Assembly: GCA_051294905.1 (NCBI GenBank)
Contig: CM119383.1
Location: forward strand, 5,456,001-5,520,000
Origin: Botryllus schlosseri
Taxonomy: Eukaryota
Length of the DNA: 64,000 nt
Reading direction: 5' to 3'
Made by a program: the position numbers and the translations under genes. The notes below the pieces were generated by a model. The model was not told where the DNA came from and ran no database searches. It saw nothing but the letters and a program-made list of their open reading frames with translations. This document shows positions 30,129-55,799 of this stretch, one piece after another; within the stretch, counting starts at the first letter, position 1, and the number at the start of each line of letters is the position of its first letter.

Positions 30129-30264
30129 AGTAGTGAGGTTTGATCAAATATACGCAGGCCAATCCCAGAAGGCCACGTCGCCTTAATTGCCACGCCTACA
30201 TTGCCACATCATCCACCCATTGCCGCACCTATAGGACGCCCCTTGCCACATCATCCACCCATTG
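30129..30264 (+). repeat. Polinton left TIR (136 bp)
   Basis: Reverse complement of 46891-47026 with 4 mismatches; TGCCACATCATC repeats continue subterminally. Confidence 0.95.
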
Positions 30265-31059
30265 CCGCACCTATAGCACATCCATTGCCACATCATCTGT
30301 GCCACATCATCAAGCGCCACACCTATAGTGACACATCATCCATTGCCACATCATCACCGCATTGATTGCCGCATCTATATGGTGCACAGCGCCGCATCAA
30401 CCAGCGCGATGTCGATTGCTGCACCTGTGACATTCATTGCCACGTCAAAACTTACCTCAGCTAGAATCGAACCTGGTTTGGTTGGGTATAATTTCATGTC
30501 GCTCACCACCAGGCTATTGAGCAAACTAGCCGTATTGAGCTGTTTTGAGAATATAACCGCCGATTCTCTCTTAAATTCCGAGACAACACCTTTTTCGAGT
30601 AATAACACATAAATGTAAGACTATGTTCGTGTGTACTATAACACCCAATGATTTTGAGGAATTCTGCGAATGCAACTTGATAATGCAGATATCACAACCA
30701 TAACTGCCCGCAATCATGCGGTAGCTCATGCGCCGTGCATATTGCCGAATACTATTCCAAGAAATTGACGCGTGTGAATGTGCCACGAATACAGTTGCTT
30801 ACGATTCCAAGAAGTCGAGCCACATCGACAATGTGAATTAGAACATTATAAATAAAGTTGCGTTTCCAAGAAAATGCCGCGTGGCGATCCGAATTAGAAT
30901 GTTTACTTCCGACGTAAAGCAATTCGCATTCTGAAAACTTCGCATTTCTGATACAAGTATTGTCGTGTGCGCAGCGAATGAGCCAGGCATCGCAGACAAG
31001 GTAAGATCAATGTATTTTCGTGTCAATTTAAACTAAATTCAGCTATAATTTCTCGAAGC

Positions 31060-32726
31060 AGCATTAGCTTACGTGGATTGTGCACGCAGATTGAATTACG
31101 TTGAGATTTCTCCAATAGCTAATAACGTAATAATGAGTTCTGTGCGGCTATAATGTTAACCGACAATATAGCCGAAGTCGCATAAATTCGAATGTATATG
31201 CAAGTTCTCTGTTAAGGGTAGACTATCTAGCCTCGCTTAATACTCGAATCTCGCTGTGGTTACAAATTCGGCATGCTAATGCGTTGAGTTTGAAGCTAAA
31301 ACATCCTATTTCATGCAGCCAAGAAGACTAGAACCGCAAGCCCGGAACTAGTTACAAGCATATAATGACAAGGCAGATTACGCAACACTAAATAAAGGTG
31401 GGTTATTTCATTTCTTGACTATATTGAAAAATCGACAGCGTACCGCGTATAGCTATTTCGACGCAGCAATGCACTTCAGATTAAGATATATATAGCAACG
31501 TACATGTTTTATAGAATATATTAGATCCAATACCTATACTAAAGCCGCAAAACGCATTGGAGCATAAATGGATAATGCGCGCAGATCGAATTACACCGAG
31601 ATTTCCCGCATCATTTTAAATAGCTAATAACGTAATAATGAGTTCTGTGCACGGCTATGCAATATAGCCGAAGTCGCATAAATTCGAATGTATATGCAAG
31701 TTCTCTGTTAAGGGTAGACTATCTAGCCTCGCTTATTACTCGAATCTCGCTGTGGTTACAAATACGGCATGCTAATGCGTTGAGTTTGAAGCTAAAACAT
31801 CATATTTCACGCAGCCAAGAAGACTAGCACCGCAAGCTCGGAACTAGTTACAAGCATATAATGACAAGGCAGATTACGCTACACTAAAGGTGGGTTATTC
31901 ATTTCTTGACTATATTGAAAAATCGACAGCGTGCCGCGTATAGCTATAATTTTTCGATGCAGCAATGCACTTCAGATTAAGATATATATAGCAACGTACA
32001 TGTTTTATAGAATATATTAGATCCAATACCTATACTAAAGTCGCATAACGCATTGAAGCATAAATGGATAATGCGCGCAGTTCGGATTACACCGAGATTT
32101 CCCGCATCATTTTAAATAGCTAATAACGTAATAATGAGTTCTGTGCACGGCTATGCAATATAGCCGAAGTCGCATAAATTCGAATGTATATGCAAGTTCT
32201 CTGTTAAGGGTAGACTATCTAGCCTCGCTTATTACTCGAATCTCGCTGTGGTTACAAATACGGCATGCTAATGCGTTGAGTTTGAATCCAAAACATCATA
32301 TTTCATGCAGCCAAGAAGACTAGCACCGCAAGCCCGGAACTAGTTACAAGCATATAATGACAAGGCAGATTACGCAACACTAAAGGCGGGTTATGTCATG
32401 TTTTATAGAATATATTAGATCCAATACCTATACTAAAGCCGCAAAACGCATTGGAGCATAAATGGATAATGCGCGCAGATCGAATTACACCGAGATTTCC
32501 TGCATCATTTTAAATAGCTAATAACGTAATAATGAGTTCTGTGCACGGCTATGCAATATAGCCGAAGTCGCATAAATTCGAATGTATATGCAAGTTCTCT
32601 GTTAAGGGTAGACTATCTAGCCTCGCTTATTACTCGAATCTCGCTGTGGTTACAAATACGGCATGCTAATGCGTCGAGTTTGAAGCTAAAACATCATATT
32701 TCATGCAGCCAAGAAGACTAGCACTG
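31060..32726 (+). repeat. Tandem array of ~496-bp units (~3.5 copies) in the Polinton left arm
   Basis: Anchor GCAG(A/T)T(C/T)G(A/G)ATTAC at 31086, 31581, 32077 and 32475 (periods 495, 496, 398); a fragment recurs at ~33225. Confidence 0.92.
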
Positions 32727-33488
32727 GTTACAATATTATGAATTAATTAATTAGCTACAGCAACAGTATATATATTATTTATCGCCTATATTTAAATTCG
32801 CTCATTTCATTTCAGATCAAAACGCCGACATTGCATACGCAATTCACGCTCCGAAAATTTCATATTTCTGTCACAACTATCGCGCAATGCCCTTCACCTG
32901 ATGATGCAGGCGAGTTAGGCTACATTTCCGTATAGATTTGGACTAAATTTGGTTATAATTACTCCGCGCGGGTATGCACTTCGGATTTGAGATGGATGTT
33001 AGTCTATGAATTTTAGCTTTACTCACGACCTAAGGTTGGTAAATTGCAAGCTGTAGCAAGCATCTAACTACTGAGATTATGCTGATTTTACAACCCCATA
33101 AGCCGCTGCTTTTAGATACGTAATGGAGCTGATTTAATAGCTAGTGCAGTGATGCTTTATCTTACCATTTCTGATAGTGAATAAAATATATGCAAAATGC
33201 AAATTCGTATTAAGTGTAGCCTGGCTAGCCTCGCTTATTACTCGATGTACAGTAACGCCGTAATGTAAGTTGCGTTTGCTGTAGGAGCGAAGTCACTCAA
33301 TACAAATTCCTGGCTCTTGCTAGATAATGGTAATATGTAGCCACGATCGCCTAATCGAAAGCAAGTCTCTACTGCTGATTTAGAGTCTACTACTTTGAGA
33401 TAATTGCTATAATGAACGTAGCGAATATCACCCTTTTATAAACGTACTAAGCAAACTTTGAAACTATTGATTTTATTCGCATATACAT

Positions 33489-33944
33489 TTACACAATTTC
33501 ATTTTCTTGCTTCAGCTCCTTGACGAACCGTCGCACGATCGAATCATTCTTGCGGTGATCTTCGCCGATGGAATTTAAATAACGTTCCGTGCTCCATCCG
33601 CGCGCCTTATGGACGATAAAGCTTAGACAATGATGACCGCAAGCTCTGGAACGTTTGTGCTGCAGACGCTTTATGGAGCAGGTATAATTTTCTGGTTCTA
33701 TAAAGCACGCAATCTCGTATTTCAGCGGCATTAAGCCAAAGCTATCGTGAAAATGTGTCTCATCCTCATCCGCGTAAATGCATATCCAGTGACTTCCGAT
33801 TTTTCGAGCCTCGTCATAATTGATCACGATAGCATAAGGAGGAGGGGGTCGCCTCGGCAGTCGATCGATAGGAAATGTACCAAGGAAAATATGTTTTGTT
33901 GACTCGCAGCACCACAATATTTGGTCTATTTCATCCCCGTTCAT
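33489..33944 (-). CDS. Adenain-like (adenovirus-type) cysteine protease
   Basis: GSHW, DSFG, LQ...ACGHHC give the His-Asp-Gln-Cys catalytic set; ORF intact. Confidence 0.93.
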   Translation of the reverse strand: MNGDEIDQILWCCESTKHIFLGTFPIDRLPRRPPPPYAIVINYDEARKIGSHWICIYADEDETHFHDSFGLMPLKYEIACFIEPENYTCSIKRLQHKRSRACGHHCLSFIVHKARGWSTERYLNSIGEDHRKNDSIVRRFVKELKQENEIV

Positions 33945-35219
33945 AGCACGGTCACTTTACGACTGCTACTGATTTGCAATAGCTTCTGGAATTCCATGAA
34001 ACAGAGCAAAGTAGTTTCCGCTGTTAGCCCGCCAGCAGGAAATGTGATCCGTAAACTTAAGGTACCACTCTTTTGTAAGTCAAAGCAATCATCCAAATCA
34101 TCAGGGCGCAAATTATAAACCAGTAGACAGAAACCACTAGCGAACTCTTCAGGCGTTAGGAGTCCTCTGTTTTTCTCCATTGCACCCGTACCCTCAATCA
34201 GGTTATGGTAAAGCTCCGTGTAATGACCCTTATCGAAATCTAGCTCATAACCTCCCTCCGGAATCAGAAATCCGTTCAGTTTCAGTTCGAGTCGTTGCAT
34301 ATTATTGTGTATGAAATTATAAGGATTTTTCGTAACATCTCCTTGAAAGGCTTTCGTAGCTACCATTCCGATGATTAGGCGAGAAGGTAGAGTCCCACTA
34401 TATAGATTCCCGATATCTATCTGCGTCGTAGCAGCCGCAAATGTTCGGGGTGATCAACTTCATGTCGATATACGGATATTTCGCCTGGGCATTAACCATC
34501 ATCGCTGTCTTCACATCGTCGCTGACTCGTACGCTACATAACTGTAATTCCTTTTTCGTTAAGGTGAATTGACCGGTAGCATCTCCCATCATGAAAAAGC
34601 TTTTCGGATTCAAGGTAAGCTCAAACTCGAGAGGCACGTCATGTAGGATGTAGCGGTCTTGCAGACATAGTCCGTGATGGATTTTCGCACGTATTTCCAC
34701 CACGTTATCATCCTTATAGGCTTTACTCCTGTTGTAATATCCTTTGTTAGCCGAGGCGTTAGTTCCACCGATCGTATCCATTTTTCCTAAAGTATCCTTT
34801 CTCCATCCTGAGGCCCTGAGTGTGGTATTTTGCACGTCGAGCGGAGTGAATAAATTGTGCAGATAGGACGAATAACACTGTACTTTTATATCTTGTTTCA
34901 AAGTTTCGTTAGCGACTTTAATTTGTAGTTGAGAAATCAAGGAATCCAAGATATTATTTACAACACCAACATCATCATCCGGACCAATTGCTTCGCCACC
35001 TTTCTTTAATTGTAAATGAAATAAGAAATAGCTCTCGCTCAAATCGATAAAGTCTTCTGAGCCCTCAAAGCGGAATGTTATCACACTAGAGTTGTTCGAA
35101 ATCGGCGCTATCTTGATGATTCTTTTCTTTTCTACGCTAGTCTGTGTCGCGGGAATGTGAAATAAATCCAATGAGGGATGTACCCCCTCTGGAGACTGTA
35201 CATGAATTAACTCCGCCAT
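33941..35219 (-). pseudogene. Double jelly-roll major capsid protein, frameshifted at ~34440
   Basis: N part LDLFHIPATQTSV...FIDLSESY; C part GNLYSGTLPSRLIIGMV...KNPYNF...FDLQKSGTLSLRITF; frames join at AAC ATT T GCG. Confidence 0.88.
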
Positions 35220-35268
35220 CTATCAAGTCTCAAGTAACAAATGATGCTTATCGTCGTGTAATATATAT

Positions 35269-35640
35269 TTAATCGAAAATATCTTTGCGACGTCTCTTTT
35301 TCGCGATCTTACGACCCCGTCTTGGCATTTTTCTTTTTCTCAGTAAAGAATCGAGAGCGTTCCCAGCGGCTTCTTTTCCGCGTATTTTAAGACTATCGCC
35401 GACATTCTCTCCATTTAGAACATCAGAGGCTACTTGCGCACCGGTATGTAGTAGACGCTTCCCGAGTGATTTTGCACCTATCGAAATTAGGGGCATAACG
35501 CTTCTTCCGAACGAACGAAATAAGTTTCCAAGTCCATGACCTCTCTGCACTTTACCCCGAAAAAAATTGATATCACCACCGCTCTGTTGGTGATAATAGT
35601 TTCTGAACGCCTCCCGATCACAGCAATAATGACTCCTCAT
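35269..35640 (-). CDS. Conserved Polinton basic core/membrane-lytic-like protein (QRGHGLG motif)
   Basis: YYHQQSGG...QRGHGLGNLFRSFGRSVMPL amphipathic helix, Arg/Lys-rich tail ending KDIFD. Confidence 0.8.
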   Translation of the reverse strand: MRSHYCCDREAFRNYYHQQSGGDINFFRGKVQRGHGLGNLFRSFGRSVMPLISIGAKSLGKRLLHTGAQVASDVLNGENVGDSLKIRGKEAAGNALDSLLRKRKMPRRGRKIAKKRRRKDIFD

Positions 35641-36340
35641 GATGTCTCAAAGCAAGTGTGAGATGAAGAGGCGCGTTCCCAAACTTTATAGCTTCGCCTT
35701 TATCATCACGAAGCATAACGCGTATCTCGCTTACTCGCTCCGTATTCAGAGGAAAGAAATATATTTTTTTGAATAGCATATGCTGATATTCATCTATTCC
35801 TGTCGTAACGCGGATATTGCGTAGTAGAGGCGCACACGTATCACCTACAATTTGAGGTGTGATGACATCCGTATAAACTAAAACGTTGGTCACGGGCTCA
35901 GTTTCCCCTTGAAAGTGAATTTTTCTTCGTCTATGTAATCCACCATCTAGCTCTACCTCCGAACGAGCGCCTCCTCTGAGAACGGGGTTTCTATTATCCA
36001 TGAAAAGTCTCGGACCGCTGGAACTCTTGTAAGGTCCCGCTATCAAGACCGGACCAGAACCATCTACCCAAATAAACCTTGCTTTTTTCTGATCGTGATT
36101 GATACGCTTCATCAAACTAATTTTATCATGATAATCACCAGGCGGGAAATAATAAAAATTATTATCGCCTTCCGCATCATTCACGTACCATAATAAGCCA
36201 TCGTAAGGCTCGAACGTGGGCTGAAAATTATTTTTAAAAGACAACTCGGCAAGCCCTATCTCCCATTCACCAGAATCTATCGGTTTCGCGAGATCGATAG
36301 TAAAATCAGACTCGTGTGACGTAATATGAATATATTTCAT
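35618..36340 (-). CDS. Penton-like minor capsid protein 2
   Basis: DFTIDLAKPIDSGEWEIGLAELSF; LVYTDVITPQIVGDTCAPLLR; IRVMLRDDKGEAIKF...LTLALR. Confidence 0.85.
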   Translation of the reverse strand: MKYIHITSHESDFTIDLAKPIDSGEWEIGLAELSFKNNFQPTFEPYDGLLWYVNDAEGDNNFYYFPPGDYHDKISLMKRINHDQKKARFIWVDGSGPVLIAGPYKSSSGPRLFMDNRNPVLRGGARSEVELDGGLHRRRKIHFQGETEPVTNVLVYTDVITPQIVGDTCAPLLRNIRVTTGIDEYQHMLFKKIYFFPLNTERVSEIRVMLRDDKGEAIKFGNAPLHLTLALRHHEESLLL

Positions 36341-37145
36341 AATGCAACTCCCCGTCTACGAAAATGCAATACAACACTCGAAGGAGAACTTCGAAAGGGT
36401 ATTTTCTCACCCTTCTCATCAAGTAGCGATATTTCGATGCGTTCTAGCCTATTTATATTAACAGGGAAATAAAAAGGCTTCGTGTAATATTTCGAAAATG
36501 ATTTACGATTGTTCACCTGTACGACCGTAACAACGGTAAGAGCCTACCGCTATCTTCTTGTGGCTCAATGATATTACAATGAACATAAACGAAATCGATA
36601 GTCGGATCATGTCGCATGCGAAAGTTCAAATGAATGATACCCTCAGTGAAAAAATAATTCCACAATGTACAATTAGTATTCGGGAAATGAAACGCCAATA
36701 ACTCCTCCCTCGTTTCCTTACGCATAAGAGCACCGTACAATTCTCCGCGGAGTAGCAAGCTACTATGCCCTATGTCCGTCTCTGGTCGCAATTTGTCGGT
36801 TACCTCGTTATGAGGTACAGAGATAGACATACTATGATTTTCAGGGAAACATGTTACTTTTGCATAAGGATTGTCTCTTTCCAACGATCTATACAGGTCG
36901 TATAACGAGTCGTATTCTCCCAATTTAAAATGAAAGTTTCTTGCTCTCTTTTGCGTTCTGATCCCATACCTATTCTTCGTGATCCTATACTGTTTTTGAT
37001 AATCCGTGGGGAAGGAGATCTCAGCCAGAGAAACTTCTGTATCTTCCACGTTTTTCGGGACGTCCAATTCAACGCAATAACTCGCTGTTGTATTATCAGG
37101 AAATTTATCCATGGAAGCGTTCGAAAATAGCGTGACGTAGCTCAT
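36337..37145 (-). pseudogene. Penton-like minor capsid protein 1, frameshifted at ~36524
   Basis: MSYVTLFSNASMDKFPDNT...EVSLAEISFP; FVYVHCNIIEPQ...LPLLR continues in a shifted frame as VQVNN...IEISLLDEKGEKIPF...VVLHFRRR. Confidence 0.85.
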
Positions 37146-37351
37146 ATTTTGAGCTTGGGATTCGGAAGCATATAACCAACGCAAGAGGAGAGCAGTGATA
37201 TCCAAAGCTCTTTGTTCCCATTCGAAATGGTAAGATTATAGAGAGAGAACGATACGATGACCAGTATGATTACTAGTTGCGCCAAAAACTGATAAAGGTT
37301 CCGACTAGACGATATCCTTCTTATCGACCCAGCTGTCGAATCCACTTCCAT
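37142..37351 (-). CDS. Small Polinton transmembrane protein
   Basis: FLAQLVIILVIVSFSLYNL...LWISLLSSCVGYMLPNPK; stop overlaps the next start (ATGA). Confidence 0.75.
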   Translation of the reverse strand: MEVDSTAGSIRRISSSRNLYQFLAQLVIILVIVSFSLYNLTISNGNKELWISLLSSCVGYMLPNPKLKI

Positions 37352-38303
37352 ATCCCAACCAGCGTACTAAATACTGTTCTCGTCCCGCGCGTTTACGCCT
37401 TCTTATAATCTTCTCGACACGCCAAGCTTGCGGTTCTTTTACGCGTTGGAGCTCCTCTCTATAAAATCTACCCTGGATGACTTCACCACCGTAATCACGT
37501 AAGCGATACATTGGGGGATCCCCCTTTTGGGCGTCTGCGATATAGAAAATTTCGCGTTGCCAGTTGGGTAGGCTGCTTTTCTCAAAAAGATTTCGAATTT
37601 TCGATATACGGACGGGTACTCCTACAGCGAGGTCGGGTTGTTTAGCTTCTTGAAACCCGTAAAGTCTTCTCCAAACCGATTCCTGATTAGACGAATTCAC
37701 TTGGTTGGGGGCCATAGCAATGCTACGATGGTACGTCCTGTTGTAGGAGTAAGTAAAGTCATCGAGGACGTTCACGTAATACCTCGTGTTATTTTTTGTG
37801 AAAAATCGATACATAATCGCTTTCATACTACGAATCACCCTTTCGACGACAGACGATTTTAATTCGCTCCTCGTATAGAAATATCTAACTTTGTTCTCCT
37901 TTAGATAGTTCTGGAAAGAGCGATTGGTATATTCGCTACCTTGATCGGTTTGTAACACTAACGGTACGCGTTCACGAAACACACGTTTGAAAGCAGAAAT
38001 CATACTTGAAGCAGTTTTATTTTTAATCGCTATCATCCAAAGGTATTTGCTAAAAATATCAATCACCACCACCACAAAACGAAAACCGCTATTGTACTTT
38101 GAAATAGATTGCAGATCCATCAAATCGCTCTGAAACTGAGCATTGATACCGGAGACCACTACACGTTCACGCCTAAATTTCTTACGTAACGGAAAATGAA
38201 AAGTATAAGTATCTTGTCCTTTAAGCCATTCTTTTTCCTTTTGCAAATAAGCGCCCCTATACGATTTGGGCTGTTTCGGATCAAAATAGTCTACGTCTCC
38301 CAT
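37305..38303 (-). CDS. Retroviral-type (rve) integrase with C-terminal chromodomain
   Basis: QSDLMD, VIDIFSKY, LQTDQGSEY, SSVVERVIRSMK (DDE); chromodomain WRVEKII...YLVRWLGYGSGFDSWV; intact. Confidence 0.95.
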   Translation of the reverse strand: MGDVDYFDPKQPKSYRGAYLQKEKEWLKGQDTYTFHFPLRKKFRRERVVVSGINAQFQSDLMDLQSISKYNSGFRFVVVVIDIFSKYLWMIAIKNKTASSMISAFKRVFRERVPLVLQTDQGSEYTNRSFQNYLKENKVRYFYTRSELKSSVVERVIRSMKAIMYRFFTKNNTRYYVNVLDDFTYSYNRTYHRSIAMAPNQVNSSNQESVWRRLYGFQEAKQPDLAVGVPVRISKIRNLFEKSSLPNWQREIFYIADAQKGDPPMYRLRDYGGEVIQGRFYREELQRVKEPQAWRVEKIIRRRKRAGREQYLVRWLGYGSGFDSWVDKKDIV

Positions 38304-38629
38304 TCTTTCCCGTATATACGGGGATTAGGCTTACGCTGTCTCTTATAAAGCCAGGGAAACGAAGGTTGTGGAATCCGGCGCGGGCGTTTCTTTTGCGGGC
38401 GCTTTTCTTTCGCTACGGGGCTCGCGAGCCCCGTGTGTGCGGCGGGAGGGCGGGTGGTCGCTGCGTCTACGTCTTTTCTCAGGTTTCTCAGTTGAGCAAT
38501 ACCATGCCTATACAGAGCTAGTTTCTCGGAAGCATTCAATTGAGAGCTTTTAATTTTCGATATATGTTTATCAAATTTCTTTTCCCATTCGTCCTTGCTT
38601 CGAAATGCGGGGAATTGTAGTTCACGCAT
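38291..38629 (-). CDS. Polinton hypothetical protein (112 aa)
   Basis: ORF overlapping both neighbours in the compact gene array; EKLALYRHGIAQL helix, basic C terminus. Confidence 0.65.
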   Translation of the reverse strand: MRELQFPAFRSKDEWEKKFDKHISKIKSSQLNASEKLALYRHGIAQLRNLRKDVDAATTRPPAAHTGLASPVAKEKRPQKKRPRRIPQPSFPWLYKRQRKPNPRIYGKEWET

Positions 38630-39029
38630 TCTTCCCGAAAAGTTTACCCAACAGACTCCCGATGACGGGGATTGCAGCGCCTAATATAGCTAAAACAGAC
38701 TAGTTAGAAAAAAGTTGCTATTTTATCATAATCTTTATACCTGAGAGGAATCCACCCTTTTGTAGCACCCTCCGTTGACCTCTGCGAGTTTTTTGCGCAA
38801 GCAATTGTCTGATATCGGATTTGTGTTTTCCAAGCCTCAACTTTCTAGATTGGGAGATACGTACTGTCCCCGAAGCCAAGTTATGAACGCACTGGCAGAC
38901 GCAACTTAAAAATTGATTGTTCGATAAAAGTTCTTTTCGCTGTTTCCCTTTAGCGTTTTTCAAAAGTTTTAATTTAACGTGATAGTCGCTCAATCGTTTT
39001 CGAGATATGTTACTTCCCCTCTTCGACAT
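38622..39029 (-). CDS. Polinton basic protein with QKGGFL motif; probable spliced gene join(38741-39029,38622-38689)
   Basis: Splicing GTATAA...CTAAC...TTTTAG (38690-38740) gives QKGGFLSAILGAAIPVIGSLLGKLFGKNA*; the unspliced frame stops at 38718. Confidence 0.75.
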
Positions 39030-39064
39030 GTTGAATGCCCTAAAATCTGCAGCGCGAGCTGTAT

Positions 39065-39682
39065 TTATTCTTGATATACCGTCAACTTTTGATGTGGGAA
39101 TATTTTGCTGCGAAGACGATAATTTTCGTCTGTCTCTTGCGTCACGTCAACCAGTATGTACGAGAACGGTTTTCGAGTTGCCTTTTTATAAGCCTCCGTA
39201 AGGAATCCGGCTTTATCCGGGAACATTTGACGTGAAAGAAAACTGATTTAACTCGCATCACGGGGATTTTTAAATATCACGATATAGCTCGCGCTCAAGG
39301 TCATATCCCGAAAGCCTTGGCCCCTATAGAAGAGGTTCTGACAAATGAACACCACGCTGATCTTTGCGTGATGACTGTATCGAGTGAATAGATCTCTGGC
39401 CTCTTTCGCTTCCGTCATCATGTCGTCGATCACCAAGAGAACGTGCCTATTTCCTTTCTGTAACTTTTTGAGCTCGGAGAGCCCTTGCGAGAATTCTACC
39501 CCTTTCATTTTATCGTACAACGCCTGATAATTATTATACAACCATACAATTTTTTCAGGAGCCGGTCTAATCATCTTCTCTGCGTTCTTCACCAACTCAT
39601 AAGTAAAATAACTCTTCCCGCTACTGCTCGGACCAGCCACGATCATCCGAAACGGAGCATGCAATGTACGTATTCGATCCAT
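39065..39682 (-). pseudogene. A32/FtsK-like packaging ATPase with in-frame premature stop at 39248-39250
   Basis: Walker A GPSSSGKS, Walker B LLVIDD, SHH, QN, FKNPRD; same frame after TAA reads ISFLSRQMFP...AYKKATRKPFSYILVD...RLRSKIFP. Confidence 0.9.
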
Positions 39683-39685
39683 TTA

Positions 39686-42600
39686 TTACAGAGATAAAGG
39701 CAATGTATGAATTCCATCATTAAGCACAATCCTTTTATAATAACCATAACTCAATGCACTTCGATATTGCTTATACGTAAACATATCGCTCCCATAGCAA
39801 CGAAAACCGCTATTGACACCACCTGTGATCGATCTATTTTGAAGAATGCCTTTGAAATCTTTGAAAGTTTTGTTGGCCGTTTTTTGAAGCCCTTTCGAGC
39901 TGTACTTATCGCTGTCGCCTTTGCAATAATAGGTCTTGGAATTGAGCCCTATAAAGCCGTCACCGATCCATTCTTCTTTGAATAAACCCGGTATACGTTT
40001 CGAGTAATTGCGAACCTCAATGCAGCAAGCTTTATCAGTTTTAAAACCAACGGGATCTCTCTCAAAATCACATTTATGCTCTGCACATGCGCGAGCCACG
40101 AACCATTTGTCGTGACTTTCAAAAAATTGTTTTTTCATGGAAGGCTTGATGAGAGAATAGATCGTATCGGAGCTTAAGCTTATGTACGCCGAATCAGTAT
40201 CTGTTTCGAGGAAAGCCCAATCGCTATCGTCCAAATACACATGCAGACAGTCATATAGGAACTGGAGCATTCTCAGCTTGGCACAGCAGAATATAAAGAA
40301 GCCCACAATGATTGGGTTTTCGTGACAAATGTTTAGCGGACGCGTAGCTACTTCGAGCAAGCCTTCATCGCTCTTATCAATTTCAACAGCATCGACAAAA
40401 AATTTTTTTTCAACGCGCGATGGTAATTCTTCCAACGTGACGTATTCGTGTTCCCTATATTTATTGGGGTTTTGAATAGTACGGCCGAAAAGACTATTTC
40501 CAATCGTCTTCCAGGTCAATGCTTCCATTTCACGGGCTGGATCTTTTGGGAGGACATCGCCTTTGCGGCGCTCAGAGGATACTCGCTCAACGAAGGGTGT
40601 GAAAACTTGTTTTGGTTCATATTCGACAGCTTGGAATACGCGAGTCACGATCATGCCACTTTTCAAGTACCACTGAAGCAAATCCGTATTAAACAACTGT
40701 TTTTTCGTGAAATAACTAGAGCCCAAAAATTTTTTTGGAAACTTAATATTGTTTTCTTTGGCGTATTCACGCATATGTTCACCGATATCGCACTCGTTTA
40801 CTTCCATATGTTTGAAAAAAGGAGGTAACTCTTCGAATTTCGATTTTAAATGGTCGGGACAATGAATGTCACACTCGATTGCACCGAAAAATGACCCGTC
40901 TAGCGTGCGCTTGAGCAACTGCGCCTCAGTGAGATAATAAGCTTTCGTGACTTTACGCTCGAACTTTGAGACAAATTGCGCAATTTCAGGGTCTCGTTTC
41001 ATATTCGTCCAAACGCATTCCTTCATACGGATAACGGTATATCCCAATTTTTCCAAATATTCCGTGTTTTGTTTGGTGAGTTCACGCCTCTCGGTGTTCT
41101 CTTTATCAGGGAAGCAGCTCCTACAAGCGTGGTAATAGCACCCATCGTACTGAAAGATGAGTTTACCGGCGTTCCCGTCGACAAATAGACGTTTATTTCC
41201 GATTCTCACTTGACTACCGTTCCACGCGTGCTGAATTTTGATGTCACGAACGTGACTTTCGTATTCCAACCATTCGCGCTCCGCATGAGTAGGCCAAACG
41301 CGCTGTTTATGGAATTTTTGCTTTTCCTCATCATAAATCCACCTTATAGGGTAACCCGTTGGCATATTTTGATTTATGCATTGCAAATAGAGGGCATTTG
41401 CGTCATATCCTACTACTTTCTTGACGGTTTTAGCACTGTCACCGTAGCGAAGACTGCGTATTTTCGTTTCACCCGCCATAGCGTACCGTGACTAATCTGT
41501 GACAAACCTCCTACCAAGTTGTTCAGAATCGTTTCGTGAAGGTCAGCATTGGCCTTATTCAGAAGAGTGATATCATAGCAATCACGAAACATCAGTCTAC
41601 TCGCTATATTCGGAAGGCTCACGTTACCCTTGAACATATCGATGCCAAGCGTTTTGTAAAATTCGAAATTGTTAGTTAGCGCGGTTAAGAAGCCAATGAC
41701 ATCACCTTCGTTGTAATATCGGAGAAAATCACGGAATGTGGTCATACCCTCGCGTTCCCATACAGCGACGCATTCTGCGTATTGCTCTTCCGTTATATTC
41801 GAATTGCGGGACGCGTTGTAAAACGATTCATGGCTCGGTAGCGACGTTTCATCGAGGCGCTCGATGCTATCGAGATATTCGTAGGGGAAATAAAATTTTG
41901 CGTTCACCCCATCCCCGTATAGCTTCATGTACGCATCCGAACTATAACCCGGACTCAGGAATAGCGAAATGTCCAGAAATTTTAATCTGTGCGTTGCGAT
42001 TGTCAAATAGGCGCTGTTCCTTTTCAAAACAAAGAATCCGCTTTCCTTGTGCAAGGATTTGATTAGATATTTCTTGCATAAATTCAGATCGTAGCGCGAG
42101 GAATTGAAACCGATTATGGGTATCTGATCGAGCCACGTATGGAGTCGAAGCGAGATATAATCCAAATAGGATCTTCTATTAGTGGGATCGAGCAAGTTCC
42201 GTTCTTCAATCAAATTCTCAAGTTCGATTATCTCATTGCCGAAAGATTCTCGCATTTCGGCTGAGGCGAGTTCCTGTACGCGATAAATTTCACCGATCAT
42301 TTCATCGATTAACGTCTGCGGGCAACCGTCAGATATGAAAGTTTTAGTTTCATTCGTTACGTTATTTGATAAGGACACGGAGACGGGGACGTGCCTATTA
42401 ACGTATTCTACTTTTGCAGAATTAGCTCTGAGCTCATCCTTCACGAGCATGGATTCGAAGTCAAAACACATACGGTACGGGAAGAATCTCTTTTGGTTCT
42501 CAACGAAAATGCCTTCGGATTCCAATTGCTCGAATACGGTGGGTTTCGGTCGATATACACCGCTAGCATATTTCCGCCCTTGGGATGTTTTGCATTCACG

Positions 42601-43563
42601 TTTTAGATGTCGCTTCAAATTTCCCTTTGTTGAGAAGAAAACTTTACATGAATCACAGAAAAATGTCTGGGAATAAAGTTCGATATTTGTGATCAGGCAA
42701 GAATGAGCACTTTCCATGTGTATATGAACCGCTGGCCCATCCGCTTCGGATTGCCGCAATATAAATGCTTGATGATCACGTTTTTCATAAACAACTATCT
42801 TTACGTGAAAACATTCCTCGAATTTGCTTAATTCATCAAGTGGTACCCCATCATCTACAGGCATACGATATCGTTCACGAAATTGAGATACCAATAGTCC
42901 AACATGCTTCTCATCTCGTTTTTTCTTGATGAAATGGGATAAGCAACGGAAGAGGCATAACGAATCGTTCAGTTGTGTTCCGTCCTGATGTCGAATAAAC
43001 GTCATAATATGACGACATTTTGTTGCCTCGCTCGATATCGATGCACTAGGGCAGCCCAATAAAACTCGGGGCATTTCATACAAGAAAAATTGAATATGTA
43101 ATATAGCAACGCAATAAAACTTAGTGTTTGGTCTGGCTTGTCTCGCTTGTTCGTAAGCAGCTGATAGATCGATTTCGTTGATGAAACTATCAAAGTCCCC
43201 GCGTGAAAGTATAGGTCTCGGGAGATCCAAAACAGCATGGGTTGATTGCGGATGAAAATAGCTATGTCTTTCTGTCTCTCGATTAAACAGCAGGAAGCCA
43301 TATGCATAGTTCACTTTAAATTGTCGCAATCTTCTCGGGTATATCGATGACATGCGCGCATGAATATCACCCATACCTCTTGCGAGCAGACGTTCATTGA
43401 TCACCTCTCTTGCACCCCTCGCAACCCTCCTGCTGTTAATCCATTCGGAATCGATAATCGAGTTGGAGTGCGATTGCAAAACCTCTGTTGCGTCGTTATC
43501 AAAACCGAGCGAGTCATCGATGATGAAGCTAGCATCTTCCTCGTAGCGTCTTCGACGAGCCAT
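39686..43563 (-). pseudogene. Protein-primed DNA polymerase B, single frameshift at ~41487
   Basis: Exo FDFES, GFNSSRYD, YNEGDV; pol YDANALY, KTIGNSLFG, ETDTDS, NSKTY; C2H2 finger in the N part; inserted QYDGCYYHAC nuclease-like domain. LVGGLSQISH joins RYAMAGETKIR by restoring one C. Confidence 0.93.
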
Positions 43564-43595
43564 ATATTTTAACTATATTCTGCAAAAATACACAT

Positions 43596-43967
43596 TCATA
43601 AATTTATTCCATATTTCAAACGCAATTTACACTTGAAAGCTTCATAAAGGAACAGAAATTTGATATTTTCTAAGTTACGCAGTTCATCAGCGTTGGGAGC
43701 AAATTTATCGATATCTTTAAGCACGTTTTTTGCTATAACGAGAAAATCTTTTTGCCATTCGCCATATCCTTCCAATGAGACCATTTTTCGCCAAGTAGCA
43801 ACTCTCTTGATATCATCATCAACGAAACCTTCAAAGGTAGCGGTCGTAGCATCTCGCGTACGTCTTGTGTCTCCCGCACCGTATTGTTGTAACAACATAT
43901 TTAGATCTTTACCACAATTATAAGGTTCCATATTAATCTGAGAAAACGAATTAAATATACCAGTCAT
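43596..43967 (-). CDS. Polinton orphan protein (~123 aa)
   Basis: ATG at 43967 overlaps the end of the upstream ORF; helical composition; no family recognised. Confidence 0.55.
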   Translation of the reverse strand: MTGIFNSFSQINMEPYNCGKDLNMLLQQYGAGDTRRTRDATTATFEGFVDDDIKRVATWRKMVSLEGYGEWQKDFLVIAKNVLKDIDKFAPNADELRNLENIKFLFLYEAFKCKLRLKYGINL

Positions 43968-45186
43968 TGTACTGCCGTTTGAGCTCATCGAATTTGGCGT
44001 AAAATTCACGTGCATGCACATCGTTTTCAACATAAGAGGAATCGCTCTCAAATTCGGAATCTGACGGTATGAATGTACGAGCAAATATATCATGTATAAT
44101 TTTACGGCGAGCATGCTTATTCATCTCAGGCAAGTAGGAAGGATAACACTGATTACCAAATCGGATAATCACTGTGCTAGATTGAAACATCCCTCCCAAA
44201 TTGCGTAACATAACATCACTACCATTCTGAATTTCAGATACGAGCCAAAACGACGACGGCTTTACTTGTCCGTAAGCGGACTGCAAATGATTGCGATGAA
44301 TGTACATAATAGCTTCTTGCAACATCTTGTTATCGAAAAATAGAGACCCGCAATTGCGCATCACTGAAATAGATTTCTCGGTACTGTGAAATTTGAATGC
44401 CTCTAGATTTGGATGAAAAGGATCTAGGAAGTTGGTGATATCGTCAGAGAGCAACAAATCGATCAATACTTCTTTCCCTGTTTGATTTTTACCTTCTATA
44501 AAGAAGTGGGGCGCAAAATATTTCTTATGCATATGGCCCTCCATTAGGGTGATGATGAACACAGCCCGGAGAAAATTAGGGCTCCGTTTTCGATCAACAA
44601 ACAACACCTCCTCGATATTCTGCTCGAGAGAACGGAAAAATAGTATACCGTCATCAATCGTAAGTAGAGGGTAATCCAAATTATAAATCAGACCATCAAA
44701 CTTTTCCTCGTCCAATACGTTATTAGCGATACGACGTCGCTTATTGCGAAAAGGGGACGAATAAACTCTCCATGGGGCGATGATCGGTGAGTGAGGCGGG
44801 CTTTGAGCGCTGGTCACAGCTGTCGAGTTATCAGTACTCTGCGGAGGCGTAAATTGAACACCAATTGGTAGTATGCTGTTATCAAAGTCGAGTCTGCGCT
44901 TAGGTTTAGGTTCGCTTGGTTCCGGTCGTGGTATACCGATATTGATTGGTGTCATCACGACAGCTGAGGGAGCCTCATCAGATTGCGCCACTGCCTCATC
45001 AATAATTGTTACGTCATCATCACTAGCTTCCGTCTCTTTACTCTTTTCAGCTGCAATCGTAACTTCGATCAATTCTGCATCGACATCGGAATCGAAATCA
45101 CCAATCGGTAATGTATCTGCTTGATTATCAGGAATCATAGTTGTTGATTCGCTAACTACGTCGTTTGCTTTCTCCATTGTCGACAT
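43951..45186 (-). CDS. 411-aa protein: acidic/Pro-rich N terminus plus possible degenerate SF3 (NS1-like) P-loop domain
   Basis: Long ORF with a TATA box 40 nt upstream; FFIEGKNQTGKE resembles Walker A. Confidence 0.7.
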   Translation of the reverse strand: MSTMEKANDVVSESTTMIPDNQADTLPIGDFDSDVDAELIEVTIAAEKSKETEASDDDVTIIDEAVAQSDEAPSAVVMTPINIGIPRPEPSEPKPKRRLDFDNSILPIGVQFTPPQSTDNSTAVTSAQSPPHSPIIAPWRVYSSPFRNKRRRIANNVLDEEKFDGLIYNLDYPLLTIDDGILFFRSLEQNIEEVLFVDRKRSPNFLRAVFIITLMEGHMHKKYFAPHFFIEGKNQTGKEVLIDLLLSDDITNFLDPFHPNLEAFKFHSTEKSISVMRNCGSLFFDNKMLQEAIMYIHRNHLQSAYGQVKPSSFWLVSEIQNGSDVMLRNLGGMFQSSTVIIRFGNQCYPSYLPEMNKHARRKIIHDIFARTFIPSDSEFESDSSYVENDVHAREFYAKFDELKRQYNDWYI

Positions 45187-45491
45187 CCTTTTTGCGGTAT
45201 AGTTTAGTTCGGATTCGAGCCTCTCTTATATAGTGAACTACATGCGCTTTGCACGCGGAGAGCGCGTGATTGTACTCGTGGCATTCTTACTAGCATTCTA
45301 ATTATTGATAACACGTACCAGGAACGGATATGAGCTACGTGTCTTTTTCTGTGAGCAGTCGACGTTCTAATTTCCGTGATACGACCTCGGGGCCTATCAT
45401 TCGATCGGTACCAAGCACATTTTTCAATGGTACATAGCTCAATATCTATATAAAGCATACTGATCATGAGAGTATATCAATTCGGATAGCA
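45187..45491. promoter_or_regulatory. Putative bidirectional promoter of the Polinton
   Basis: TATATAAG on - at ~45225-45232 and TATATAAA on + at 45447-45454, each ~40 nt from a divergent ATG. Confidence 0.6.
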
Positions 45492-46073
45492 ATGTCGAAC
45501 ATTGATCAAAGCGATTCGCTACCTAAGCGTAGTGTGGATCCTACAAATTACGCTACATTCAACTGCGCTTGCATCCGTACCACGAGTAGCATAGAAATAA
45601 GCGAAGATGAAACTCGGATGGGTCCCATTGAGCAGTACCAAGCTATGATAAATAACAGAGGGGAAAAGATTTATGAATGCTATGCGAAGCATAGAGATGT
45701 AACTGTCTCCCCGTTGAATGATCCTGTTTTCTATAACATGGTACGCTATGCTCGTAGACTAAGCACATTTATGCGGTGGCCGGATAATATCAATACCTCT
45801 GGAGCCGAGCTCGCAGACTGTGGATTGTTCTATTTGGGCTATAAGGATCATTTAAAGTGTTTCTCATGTGGAGGGCTGTTTCAAAATTGGTTGTCGTGCG
45901 ATGACCCCTGGCTCGAGCATGCAAAGTTTTATCCTACGTGTCCTTTTCTCATAAAGCGCAAGGGGTTGCAATATATTCGTAATGTCTGTTATGCGACACC
46001 TAATATAAGTAGAGGCTCGACTAAATTTGATGGCGAGGTGGAATTGCGTGATGACTGTTGTACTTATGTTTGA
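45492..46073 (+). CDS. Single-BIR-domain inhibitor-of-apoptosis-like protein, no RING
   Basis: RLSTFMRWP...LADCGLFYLGYKDHLKCFSCGGLFQNWLSCDDPWLEHAKFYPTCPFL with exact CX2CX16HX6C spacing. Confidence 0.92.
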   Translation: MSNIDQSDSLPKRSVDPTNYATFNCACIRTTSSIEISEDETRMGPIEQYQAMINNRGEKIYECYAKHRDVTVSPLNDPVFYNMVRYARRLSTFMRWPDNINTSGAELADCGLFYLGYKDHLKCFSCGGLFQNWLSCDDPWLEHAKFYPTCPFLIKRKGLQYIRNVCYATPNISRGSTKFDGEVELRDDCCTYV

Positions 46074-46089
46074 TATTTCTTTTCAAAGA

Positions 46090-46572
46090 ATGAGTCTAGC
46101 AATCCGTGGAGATACTATTCTGCCCCAAGGGCCCTATAGAAAAGACTTGTATCTTTTTAATGACATCACAAAATTACGTATCGAAGCCTCGAATGGGGCA
46201 GAATTGACCTCGGATCAACTCTTTGTACATTCCACTAACGGGACCATTCAGAAATATCGAGCCACTCTGAAGCATGAAGGAGGTTTGGTCGTTACCTATA
46301 CTCGCGACGGGATCGAGCATTATCAACCTCTGAACCCGGCTGACGAATTCGTCATCTATTCACCCAGCGTAGTTGTTCCTAATCCCGACCTTCCGCTCGT
46401 ATCGTACATACTACAAGCCAGTGATCGCTACATCAAACAAAACGGTCAGATCGAACGCAAGAACCCGGGTCGCAGCGTCGGATGGCAGCAAAGCGGTGTA
46501 CCTCGAAACATCAACCGATCTGGAGGATTTCAGCACGCGAATCGACGCAATAACGATCAACGATATCATTGA
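46090..46572 (+). CDS. Polinton orphan protein (~160 aa)
   Basis: ORF directly after the IAP gene, preceded by acceptor-like TTTTCAAAG and followed by AATAAA (46589); beta-rich N part, basic low-complexity tail. Confidence 0.6.
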   Translation: MSLAIRGDTILPQGPYRKDLYLFNDITKLRIEASNGAELTSDQLFVHSTNGTIQKYRATLKHEGGLVVTYTRDGIEHYQPLNPADEFVIYSPSVVVPNPDLPLVSYILQASDRYIKQNGQIERKNPGRSVGWQQSGVPRNINRSGGFQHANRRNNDQRYH

Positions 46573-46890
46573 TATGCTCTTTTTTCGAAATAAAATGAAC
46601 TCGTACACTATACAAGGCTATTTCAATGAGACTGAGTAAAGTGTTAGAAGATATGAAAAGGGTCGTATGAAATGCGGTGACTACAGGGATCGAGCCTACA
46701 ACCTAGAGCAAGATAGTTGGCTGATTCCTCTGTGATGACGTCGTGAAATCTAGTTCAACGATTAGTGTAGCGAGAATTCTTATTCTCAAAAAACAGCTTA
46801 GTACACATAATCATGATTATGTGGCAATGGGCGTTATATAGGCGGATGATGTGTTAATGGCCGCGGCTGATGACGTAGCAGATGATGTGA

Positions 46891-47026
46891 CAATGGGTGG
46901 ATGATGTGGCAAGGGGTGTCCCATAGGTGCGGCAATGGGCGGATGATGTGGCAATGTAGGCGTGGCAATTAAGGCGACGTGGCCTTCTGGGATTGGCCTG
47001 CGTATATTTGATCAACCCTCACTACT
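46891..47026 (-). repeat. Polinton right TIR (136 bp)
   Basis: Ends ...CCTCACTACT; see left TIR. Confidence 0.95.
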
Positions 47027-49733: not shown

Positions 49734-50037
49734 ATGTTGCACAGCCGGTGATTTCCAACCTTCTATGGTCGCGACCTCATTTTCCACTTGAAAATGTTCC
49801 GTGGCAAAGCTCAACATCATCGCGATCCCCAGATAAATGCGAACGACACCAAGATTTGGAACCACTGTTTGTGATTGAAGCTACCAATCGACCTTAACCA
49901 GCTCCAGGAATAGGCTCTACCATAAGCTTATAATTGCGATTACAATCAGACTTATTTTAGTAAATGATGGTTATTTATATTACTTTTGATTGCATTTTTG
50001 GAGAGGGTGGTGCCTGCTGCCATACTAATATCATTAT

Positions 50038-53000
50038 TGTAATATAGTTCAATGTATTTAAAAACGTTTCAGTAAAAACCGCACAACCAGTCCTCTCGCC
50101 TTCGAGCCCGTTCTGTCGATCGCGTGACAGGAGCGTCGGGAGCACACACATAATCATTACGTTAATCACAATCACACTTCCCCTTGATCTAAAGATCACA
50201 TGGGAAACCAACACATAACGCAACGATGTAACTTCAAACGTGAAAATCAGGTGAACAATTCTAAAACAGTGTATAGCCTACATGAAACGGCAAACTTCCC
50301 CTTGGTCTGAAGATCGCACGGGAAGCCAAGTCAACGTGATAAATGTGGACACAAAAACAAACTAATACGCAGTGTACACATATCGATACATCAAATTGAA
50401 AGTTAAATTTCGATATATGCCTGTGATCTATTGACGGGGACGGGGAGTCATATGGTCTTCCTACCCCCGTGATATATTGATCACTGGCCCAAATTCAAAG
50501 CTTTTGAGTGTAACCCCGCAGTGTAGCCTATATAGGCCAATGGGCCAATTCTGAATAAATTAACACGAGTCGTTCGCTATTAGAAGCACACAAAGTGGAT
50601 CCCACAACTAAAACATACTGGCGTACAAAAAACGAAAAACTGCGGTGTAGGTGTGCCTCAAACGATGGACGAAAGCGATGATAACTGGAATTTGTAGCAT
50701 ACAGAATTCGTACTTGAAGGCTAAAACTTGCAAGGTATATGCAATCATCACAAGGCATAAGCATTTACGCGCGAACAAATCAAAATGTAAAAAATCACTT
50801 ATTCTTAGTACAGATATACTCAACATCCAGCCTACATAAAAGTCAGCCAACCATTGTGGCGGCGCTCGATCCCGATTTGGTCGCGAATGGTCAGAGTTAT
50901 TTCTCTCAATATCATGGTCGACATTGTCATCACCAGGTTGATCCAGATCAGCTGAGTTATTCCCATCGGTGATATTCTCTTCCGTACCGACTGGGTCAAT
51001 AGCTTCACCCGAGTTACCGCTGTTTTCCGTATCAATGGCATCATCTTCTCTGCTACAATTCAAGTCGATTTCGCGCGACGTAACACTTCCTCCTGGTGGG
51101 TTAGGTAGATCCCCGACGGCGAGTCTAACGTCAGAAAGATGTCGATTCATCCCGTCAACCTCGACCACCACGTCGGCGACAACCCTGGTAACGACACCTC
51201 TATTCCATTGAGTAGTACATCGAGCATTTGGTGGCTTCACGAACACTACATCACCGACTCGGTATGGGTTGGAACTATTTTGTCGGTCCAATCTCTTTCT
51301 GCTTGCGCGGATCATTGAAGATGGCAAACCAGATTCATAGCGAAACACCTTATCCGCAGGTACAATATCCTCCGAATTCGGAGTGTGATTGTACCAATAC
51401 ACCATTCGTTCAACACTACCTCCAGATCTCGCGGCCATTCTTTTGATAGTTCTGTGATTCCGCTCCACAATACCATTTCCAGAATGCCGGTAGGCGCAGC
51501 TGAACACATGTTCCACCCCCCAACTGTTCAAAAACTGGCGCATTTTCTGACTAGTAAAACAAGGTCCGTTATCACTCAGAATTTCACTCGGCGCACCTCT
51601 TTCCGAGAAGACTTGTTCAAGGATCTGGATGATTTTATCGGCCGTTTCATTTCGCACCGCCCGCCATATCGCAAATCGACTAGGCCCGCAGTCGATCAAA
51701 CTCAGGTATGGTCGAGTGTTTACGTAAGTAATGTCAAGTGCCAGGCGCTCCCAGACAACGGGAACGGAAAGCTGCCCGTGTTCCCATCTCACGGGACTCG
51801 GATCAATTCTGCGACAGATGTTGCACTCATTGATTACTCGTTGAACAACATCACGAGTAACAGCTTCGCCAATGCTTCTTTTGGCCACGAAAAGCGTCCG
51901 ATTCACACCTAGGTGATGCACGTTATGAAGAGCCCGTACCTGTTCAATCACGTTCTCATTACGCCGGTTTACTCCAAGACACACCTTCTTTAGCCAGCGT
52001 TGCGGGACTCTCGTTAGTGCATCTGCGAGATTCTCCGACGATGGTACCCAACGGATTGTGACCTCCATGCAGTATTCCTGAAAGAGCTGCGCGATAATTC
52101 CCAATCTTCTTTTAATAATCATTTCACTTAGCCCACTGACTCTAGGTCGACGCGAATCTTCCAATATTGACTTGACCCAATGGAACACACTGACCGAGTC
52201 GGTCACAACTTCTACATTAGTGAAACCCCATCTCAGCATCAAACTTAATCCCTTTACGACAGCGTCGAGCTCCGCGACATTTATATGCGTTCCGTCGTCC
52301 TCTTTCCTCATCCATGCTGCATCTTCGACAACCTTCCCATTTACGGTCAAACAGCATGCCACCGCCATATTGCTCGCATCGCACCAAATTTGCGCTCTTC
52401 CATCACGATATACTCTCCAGTCCCCTCTTACTGGATCGTTCTCTCGTACCTTCGTCAAGATTTCTTCAGCCAAATGCATAACTGGATTCGGGATTACCGC
52501 ATCCCACGCTATCTCGTTAGTAAGTCGTTTTACATGACTGCATGCAGTTCTTAACCACCCGGCCACGGGATAATGCCCTGTGAGCTTGCCGAACACAGAA
52601 AATAGCCCTCTCTTCGTCATGCGGCCGTTCAAACTCGGCAGGTCACCATCTCTCCTCCACTCCAGTACTCCATTCTGGGTCTCATTCACCCGCAATCCAA
52701 GTACACGTGCATCACGTAACGGAACTGGATCCTTCGTCGCTAACCCATAACTTGCCAAATGCCTGCGCACTTTCTCAACAGCTACAACATTCTCATCAAC
52801 CCAGATGTCGTCGATGTAATGGTCGGTTCCCCTTGCTATGTCGTCTTCCAGTGACAATACGGTAGAAATGATCTTGGTCATCACCTTTGGGCCGATGTTC
52901 AAACCGAACCCCATTCGTGTCATAACGTAAACTTTTCCTTGATGCCGCACTACTTGGAATTTTTGCAGCCTCTCGGACACGTGAATCTGTAGGTATGCCT

Positions 53001-54721: not shown

Positions 54722-55799
54722 ATTATACGTTGCATTAACTCGCGCGCGGCGCGAAGAACAATTTTTAATACCATAAATCTGCTCAAAAATATAATATTGT
54801 TTATGTGGATTTACGAAAAACTTTTGAGCCTGCTTCAAGCCTTCAAAATTCCGGACATTTAGGCATATTTTAGAAATTCCTCCCGGACGCAGATTTTTCA
54901 GTGAAATTCCGGACATGTCCGGGAAATTCCGGACGTATGGCAACCCCAGTGTAACCCGTGAGAGCGACCAATCATTCAATAATCGACTGTTTCACCTCCA
55001 TTGTTCTTTTACAAAAAACTGGACCGCAAACGACGTGATCGAAGCTTACAGATTACTTTGTTGCAAACTAGTAGTAAAGTCATTTAAAAAATGTCAATTT
55101 CCGTTCTATTGTCTTACTTTCACATAACCTCTTGTTTATTTGAAATTGAACTCGAATATGGTTTATAATATAGTCCTCAACCATTGGCACAGGCGTGAAT
55201 TGTATCACATCAATTTGTAAATGGGTAATGTACTGCATCTTATTCATTCGTTTCTCTATTCTATATATTGACTGGTAGCCTAACTATAAACTGAGGTTAT
55301 GTAACTAATTACTTCCGTAGTTTAGCAGTTCTACGTATATGTGAGCGATACAGCGCCTTCTTGCGTGTATATTTAATTCTATATTTGTTCATCGGTTCGG
55401 AAAGTATGGCCACTCAATCTGTATTTCAGTCAGCTAGCAAAATACAATGACGTAATCATGCCTCATACTTCGAAAAGTCAACTTGACTTGAATTGTGACT
55501 TGACTCGTGACTTGACTTGACTTGACTTGACTTGACTCGACTTGACTCGAGCCACCTCCAAAAATCGAGTGACTTGACTTGACTCGAGTCACCTTCGAAA
55601 ATCGATTGACTTGACTTGACTCGAGTCAAAACGTGCAATGACTCGAAATGACTCGTGACTCGTAGGCATTGACTTGATCCCAACACTGCTTGTAACTGAA
55701 AGTTATACTAACAAGAATTATAGTTTTGATACTAATTTTCCACCGAGGAAGCCTTGAAACTTTGGTTAACCGTGTCGCAGCATACCAGACATTACAAAG

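Follow-up and report, generated by a model that had tools for sequence, protein, structure and literature searches.

A probable short intron in the GasderminX-like gene of a Polinton from Botryllus schlosseri

A Polinton and its gene neighbourhood

The window, the whole stretch of 64,000 nt of Botryllus schlosseri DNA analysed here, contains a 16.9-kb Polinton with 141-nt inverted repeats (96%), flanked on both sides by the 6-bp target duplication GAAGCT. Its assignment to the Polinton/Maverick group follows from the inverted repeats, the conserved ends and the 6-bp target duplication, together with Pfam matches to an rve integrase with chromodomain and to an A32 ATPase. In its ends ((AGT)2//(ACT)2), inverted repeats, 6-bp target duplication, size (~17 kb) and core gene set it resembles the intact vertebrate Mavericks/Polintons as described in PMC8097293. 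The features of the locus, and a host gene used as a control, are:

30129-47026, no strand assigned: whole Polinton, with AGTAGT...ACTACT ends, inverted repeats and target duplication
39065-39682, minus strand: A32-type packaging ATPase, upstream of the GasderminX gene (PF04665, 3e-09)
38741-39029, minus strand: putative exon 1 of the GasderminX gene, 289 nt, basic helical core
38690-38740, minus strand: likely intron, a 51-nt phase-1 GT-AG stretch, 76.5% AT, starting GTATAA and ending TTTTAG
38703-38707, minus strand: candidate branch-point motif CTAAC, following a T run; likely branch A at 38704
38681-38689, minus strand: candidate second acceptor region, the first 9 nt of exon 2, with an in-frame AG
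38622-38689, minus strand: putative exon 2, 68 nt including the stop, amphipathic, possibly protein-X-like tail helix
38291-38629, minus strand: downstream 112-aa ORF, overlapping exon 2; pz/Adintoc2 by position only
37305-38303, minus strand: rve integrase with C-terminal chromodomain (PF00665, 5e-13; PF00385, 6e-08)
~4790-15690, plus strand: exons of a host SLC12 cation-chloride cotransporter gene

The core genes follow one another on the minus strand in the order polymerase, ATPase, GasderminX gene, 112-aa ORF, integrase, 69-aa hydrophobic ORF, two penton-like ORFs, 123-aa ORF, capsid and protease. Pfam gave no fitting match for PolB, the pentons or the protease, which we take to be such from motifs and gene order, and only a weak one for a capsid piece (PF21738, E 0.003). 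The copy in the window is decayed: the ORFs of the ATPase, the polymerase and the capsid have each been split in two, that of the ATPase by an in-frame stop. Sequence searches with the 112-aa ORF returned no match, and no tie to pz by sequence. The two tandem penton-like ORFs (37145-36513 and 36340-35618, minus strand) are likewise without a Pfam match, and the first seems broken shortly before its end. Between integrase and penton, the 69-aa ORF (37351-37142, minus strand) has two hydrophobic stretches. The 123-aa ORF before the capsid gene (35640-35269, minus strand) carries QxGG and QxGxG motifs, then a stretch that looks amphipathic, and is probably, by its position, the Cupiennin/pw gene. 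Elsewhere in the element, a BIR-domain (inhibitor of apoptosis) gene (45492-46073, plus strand; E 4e-18) overlaps a 180-aa unknown ORF, and the left accessory region holds a tandem array (31164-32800) of ~496-nt units, each with a 56-aa ORF. Outside it lies an LTR retrotransposon (50037-54774) that has an unbroken 1388-aa gag-pol ORF on the minus strand and whose direct repeats, at 50037 and 54582, are 99% identical.

The gene downstream of the ATPase encodes a strongly basic protein (25 K+R against 3 D+E in residues 1-93, from exon 1). An AlphaFold model (mean pLDDT 86) has a helical core, with exon 2 forming one helix. A Foldseek search of predicted viral structures returned GasderminX of Terrapene adintovirus (E 0.0059, probability 1.00, TM 0.58/0.69) as the sole match with E<1, the next having E 1.4; as the top fold hit of a modelled structure, it points to adintovirus GasderminX as the identity of the gene. 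'Cupiennin', our first guess at a name for the split gene, was given up after this match. GasderminX is described as a virion accessory protein of Beta-class adintoviruses whose C-terminal domain is protein-X-like (Starrett et al. 2021, PMC8502044); the window protein resembles it (UniProt A0A5H3CT60) in predicted fold and size, and its C-terminal tail may be protein-X-like as well. In Mavericks, pm sits between atp and pz (Barreat and Katzourakis 2021, PMC8097293), and the window gene shares with adintovirus GasderminX and vertebrate Maverick pm its place directly after the ATPase. Since its position between the ATPase and the 112-aa ORF matches that of pm, the gene is probably pm, as judged by gene order.

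Other searches were less specific. Six of 32 family members matched Pfam Adeno_PX (PF05829) weakly (E up to 0.1, best E 0.007), and Pfam had no match for the window protein itself. Among solved structures (48,161 chains), a fold search gave a best Z of 5.8 and no clear match, and gasdermins were absent from the matches, an absence that excludes nothing; a sequence search of the same structures found nothing (best E 0.04). The first-pass annotation had called the protein structural and its tail membrane-active; both properties are predicted, through homology to GasderminX and the amphipathicity of the helix.

Signals of the 51-nt stretch and its register in homologs

The same annotation had placed the break of this ORF directly after QKGGFLS, at G|GTATAA, with an AT-rich stretch of 51 nt containing CTAAC and TTTTAG; we confirmed all of these features on the minus strand. 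Exon 1 ends with the codons of QKGGFLS plus one G, and the stretch, which is in frame, runs from GT at 38740 to AG at 38690 and contains two in-frame TAG stops (38720-38718 and 38702-38700). Its AT content compares with 58% and 50% in the two exons, and equally AT-rich 51-mers make up 0.6% of the 11,648 in 33489-45186. The donor, CAG|GTATAA, agrees with the consensus at 6 of 9 positions; the likely branch A lies 14 nt from the acceptor end, a short spacing; and the acceptor at 38690 falls within the top 1.4% of 701 AGs by a crude in-house score. An alternative acceptor at 38681, proposed earlier as being in frame, proved to be so and would give a 60-nt intron. There are further candidate sites at 38700, an AG that is out of frame, and at 38755, a GT that is in frame. 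A claim that the exon 2 stop overlaps the next ATG held only in its broader sense: the two ORFs overlap by 8 nt, but it is the last two sense codons that contain the ATG (38629-38627), and the stop is at 38624-38622.

The strictest pattern of donor, branch point and acceptor had a single match on both strands of the 16.9-kb element, at the 51-nt site, against an expectation of 0.03 per shuffled strand (200 shuffles) for a pattern that was written post hoc; a loose version of the motif had 17 matches on the minus strand. By composition, the chance of GT..AG at a fixed junction is ~0.003. As the strictest pattern was post hoc, it is the homolog alignment, with its 17-residue gap at the site, that provides an independent test.

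Queried with the read-through protein, phmmer returned 334 relatives, of which the best 150 were examined. In 138 of these 150 the GG motif runs directly into the hydrophobic tail, whereas the window gene is split by GT-AG three codons past that motif; 4 end within 12 residues after GG and 8 are odd. The eight odd proteins and three of the short tails seem to result from frameshifts or contig ends, at positions other than this one. Among 32 aligned proteins, only that of the window has an insert, 17 residues long, which lies between S96 and A114. The homolog alignment that the first-pass annotation had proposed as a check thus came out in its favour: GGFL is continuous with the tail in the great majority of the best 150, and the implied insert of 17 codons coincides with the GT and AG ends.

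Spacing in the homologs bears on the choice of acceptor. From F to a conserved Pro the spacing, 27 in the read-through window protein, drops to 10 when 17 codons are taken out and to 7 when 20 are. It is 10 in all three of the nearest continuous homologs (P0003, P0012 and P0033), so the nearest relatives favour the acceptor at 38690; a spacing of 7, the commonest in the wider family (73/133), would fit 38681.

The closest homolog among the best 150 of the 334, P0002 (53% identity), ends GGFLS-G-K, at the same codon as the window break. Eight DNA readings of the G-K end are possible, of which two start G|GTAA and one is a full GTAAGT donor. Random codons would give G-K-stop about once in 10,000, or once in 500 if the end of P0002, which was read as protein only, is a contig end, as it could be. 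The read-through tails (7 residues in the window copy, 2 in P0002) are unlike each other. In a quick tree of 91 rows and 89 columns, with 4 of 95 rows left out for want of the motif, P0002 is sister to the window protein (SH-aLRT 87), and the continuous P0003, P0012 and P0033, which could themselves be RNA contigs, fall outside. Read from protein letters, the end of P0002 fits a donor site that was read through, and the tree suggests one intron gain before the window and P0002 lineages split.

Wider searches added no closer relative. A profile search gave 59 matches, none closer, and none of the 54 new ones ends just after GGFL. A word-based protein search that took the read-through product as query retained none of 108 candidates; it missed P0002 too and is uninformative on the spliced product. 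We found no relative of the GasderminX gene product in IMG/VR, and a metagenome pattern scan yielded 16 loci and no full homolog with an intron, one locus (L007) encoding a short basic protein that matches weakly and only in part.

Sister copies, RNA runs and host splicing

Sister copies of the region 37976-39505 were surveyed at 80% likeness in 4 of 24 listed sequencing runs, which gave 63 contigs (X1), 14 (X12), 3 (X3) and, from X17, no reads. In the 77 contigs of X1 and X12, not all of which span the site, we saw no joint or deletion that takes out the 51 nt, and each of the three joints listed either is a replacement or lies elsewhere; such contigs show presence of the 51 nt, not absence. 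A private lesion, which sister copies lacking the stretch would have revealed, is thus not supported.

One contig of X12 (record 10) spans 38322-39505 gap-free, with the 51 nt included. It differs from the window at 22 positions, 21 of them placeable by depth: 2 in the intron interior (3.9%), 3 in exon 1 (1.0%) and 0 in exon 2, all small numbers. No placed difference falls at the GT, the AG or either TAG. The ATPase break of the window copy is absent from this contig, so the stops within the 51 nt are a family trait and not decay. More distant copies (X1 records 3 and 4, ~80% identical) keep exon 2 and have a region 3 nt longer, which in record 4 is due to three single-base gaps inside the intron. 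These families thus have ~54 nt at the site, as known from length and exon 2. Loss of GT and AG in sister copies, which had been named as a result that would speak against an intron, was not seen; conservation is established for X12 record 10. Within the ATPase gene, at 39320-39400, the window has a dense cluster of differences from the sister copies, hinting at recombination between families.

The RNA evidence was sparse. X17, the sole run certain to be RNA, had 0 reads on 37976-39505, and in X3 positions 38333-38740 were uncovered. In X1, labelled 'RNA?', the intron is present at a summed depth of 214 with no splice joint, which is the main result against the intron reading. Because depth in X1 is flat across genes and its joints and loose ends are shared with X12, the data suggest that it is DNA rather than RNA, the kind of run being a guess. 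As to the host, the SLC12 gene has a 66-nt GT-AG gap (9283-9348; GTAAGA...AG, with CTTAAC) between in-frame exons. On this one putative intron, the host appears to splice short introns.

The proposal of a genuine intron therefore gains from the homolog register, from the sister copies and from a relative broken at the same codon, and it is weakened by the fact that no spliced RNA was observed. The stretch has GT...AG in register with the coding frame, a branch motif and a pyrimidine-rich acceptor; it is kept in DNA sisters, and the same place is marked in P0002 by protein read-through alone. Counted on the other side are the weak donor, the short branch-to-AG distance and the lengths of 51 and ~54 nt, both multiples of three, as expected of a once-coding insert. 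From these DNA and protein letters, we consider it very likely that the 51 nt are an intron of some use, and probable that they are an old, routinely spliced U2-type spliceosomal intron of the GasderminX gene.

Alternative readings and relation to known systems

If the intron is real, its retention or the choice of an alternative site could be controlled, giving either a tail-less core or a membrane-active form, as the first-pass annotation had ventured. The site is the sole strong intron signal of the element and lies at the boundary of core and tail, three codons past the predicted cut site; its donor is weak, the acceptor at 38681 and the donor at 38755 (which would drop the GG motif) offer in-frame alternatives, and retention would lead to a short stop in the window copy and in P0002 alike. 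The two read-through tails nevertheless differ (7 against 2 residues), and 138 of the 150 homologs manage without a switch of this kind. Weak donors are common in short introns, which we count against regulation. We regard it as unlikely that retention or site choice is controlled, and as no likelier that, with the helix on its own exon, splicing picks a tail-less core or an entry-competent form while the acceptor is shared with the next gene's mRNA, in a switch between transposon and virus life.

The opposite reading is that an AT-rich piece became fixed without being spliced, truncating GasderminX, with signals that are chance or a dead relic and with the tail supplied by other elements or unneeded. 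It would suit the decayed state of the window copy, lengths that are multiples of three and, if X1 is RNA, the lack of a joint there. It does not sit well with an exon 2 that is kept in near and in ~80%-identical copies, with GT and AG ends that coincide with the homolog gap, or with the break of P0002 at the same codon; nor does the stretch have a source in the window or a target duplication beyond AG. We judge an unspliced insertion to be improbable. Two other explanations were rejected: local duplication, as the longest match elsewhere in the window is 14 nt, and translational bypassing of the kind found in T4 gene 60, for want of matched take-off and landing codons.

The least probable reading, with very little weight, is that the downstream gene is the main user of the site, as an acceptor in leader cis-splicing or spliced-leader trans-splicing, and that cis-splicing of GasderminX is minor. 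The AGs at 38700, 38690 and 38681 are all in the top 3% of 701 AGs, no ATG intervenes between them and 38629, and an acceptor with a score of at least 8 lies within 80 nt of 5 of the 13 gene starts, the share among all 237 ATGs being 6.3%, by a crude in-house score that AT-rich gene gaps inflate; the donor and the exact 17-codon register are left unexplained. A secondary role is plausible, in which the acceptor may also serve this gene: the ATG of the downstream ORF is the first after the intron acceptors, and the ORF overlaps exon 2 and lacks room for an acceptor of its own.

Under the reading of a routinely spliced intron, which we prefer, the host would remove the 51 nt at 38740/38690 and join the basic helical core to the conserved amphipathic tail. 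A single gain, in the ancestor shared by the window lineage and P0002, would have placed the intron in a gene that is unbroken elsewhere. More tentatively, the intron might persist because the overlapping downstream gene also uses its acceptor, as a 3' splice site for its own mRNA. The basic core would bind DNA in the particle. By analogy with adenovirus VI and X, the full protein would be packaged and cut after GG by the Polinton protease, freeing a tail helix that would act on membranes as that of VI does (PMC8156859).

The vertebrate Mavericks offer the nearest comparison. Genes of intact copies are described as free of introns, intronless ORFs being part of the definition of 'intact', a result that PMC8097293 calls consistent with Kapitonov and Jurka 2006. 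The window element differs from these copies in having its core genes on one strand, in its decay and in its likely intron. Passages on Polinton introns are absent from the main texts of Starrett 2021, Jeong 2023 and Buck 2024, as far as these were covered, and in the literature outside subscription journals and Repbase we came across no intron reported for GasderminX or pm. Introners do occur in eupolintoviral elements of dinoflagellates (PMC12166617) and are alike in placing intron-type sequence inside Polinton-like elements. They are described there as young multi-copy transposons, mostly gained after integration, whereas the 51 nt look old and lineage-wide and have no terminal repeats; no second copy lies within the 64-kb window.

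Whether an animal Polinton counts as intact or dead is judged from its ORFs, and in the vertebrate survey the intact elements were free of introns (PMC8097293). If a virion gene carries an old intron with in-frame stops, surveys that rely on ORFs will label working lineages as broken. Such an intron would also imply nuclear transcription and host splicing, as well as long-term selection to keep the tail, which would argue that Polintons still need a virion stage. The splice junction would offer an inexpensive way to detect late-gene expression in RNA.

The comparison with adenovirus is one of precursor design. Adenovirus proteins X (mu) and VI (PMC7998265, PMC8156859) are likewise basic precursors with an xGG site, and VI is reported to release an amphipathic, membrane-lytic helix after the cut (PMC8156859). 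The window protein departs from them in having Q at P4 and no Pfam match, and cleavage and membrane activity of GasderminX are only predicted. The adenovirus protease consensus has M/I/L at P4 (PMC7998265), and the window protein, with Q there, deviates from the strict form (M/I/L)XGG-X. P4 of the predicted site is Q in 118 of 127 proteins, and the Polinton protease may prefer Q.

Two further observations were made along the way. In P0003, P0012 and P0033 the conserved Q before xGG is missing, and the site, L-x-G-G, fits the adenovirus protease consensus. Strong pyrimidine-AG acceptor-like sites lie at 43938, 43580, 39108 and 36356 on the minus strand, shortly before four element genes including the polymerase, and could reflect leader splicing or trans-splicing.
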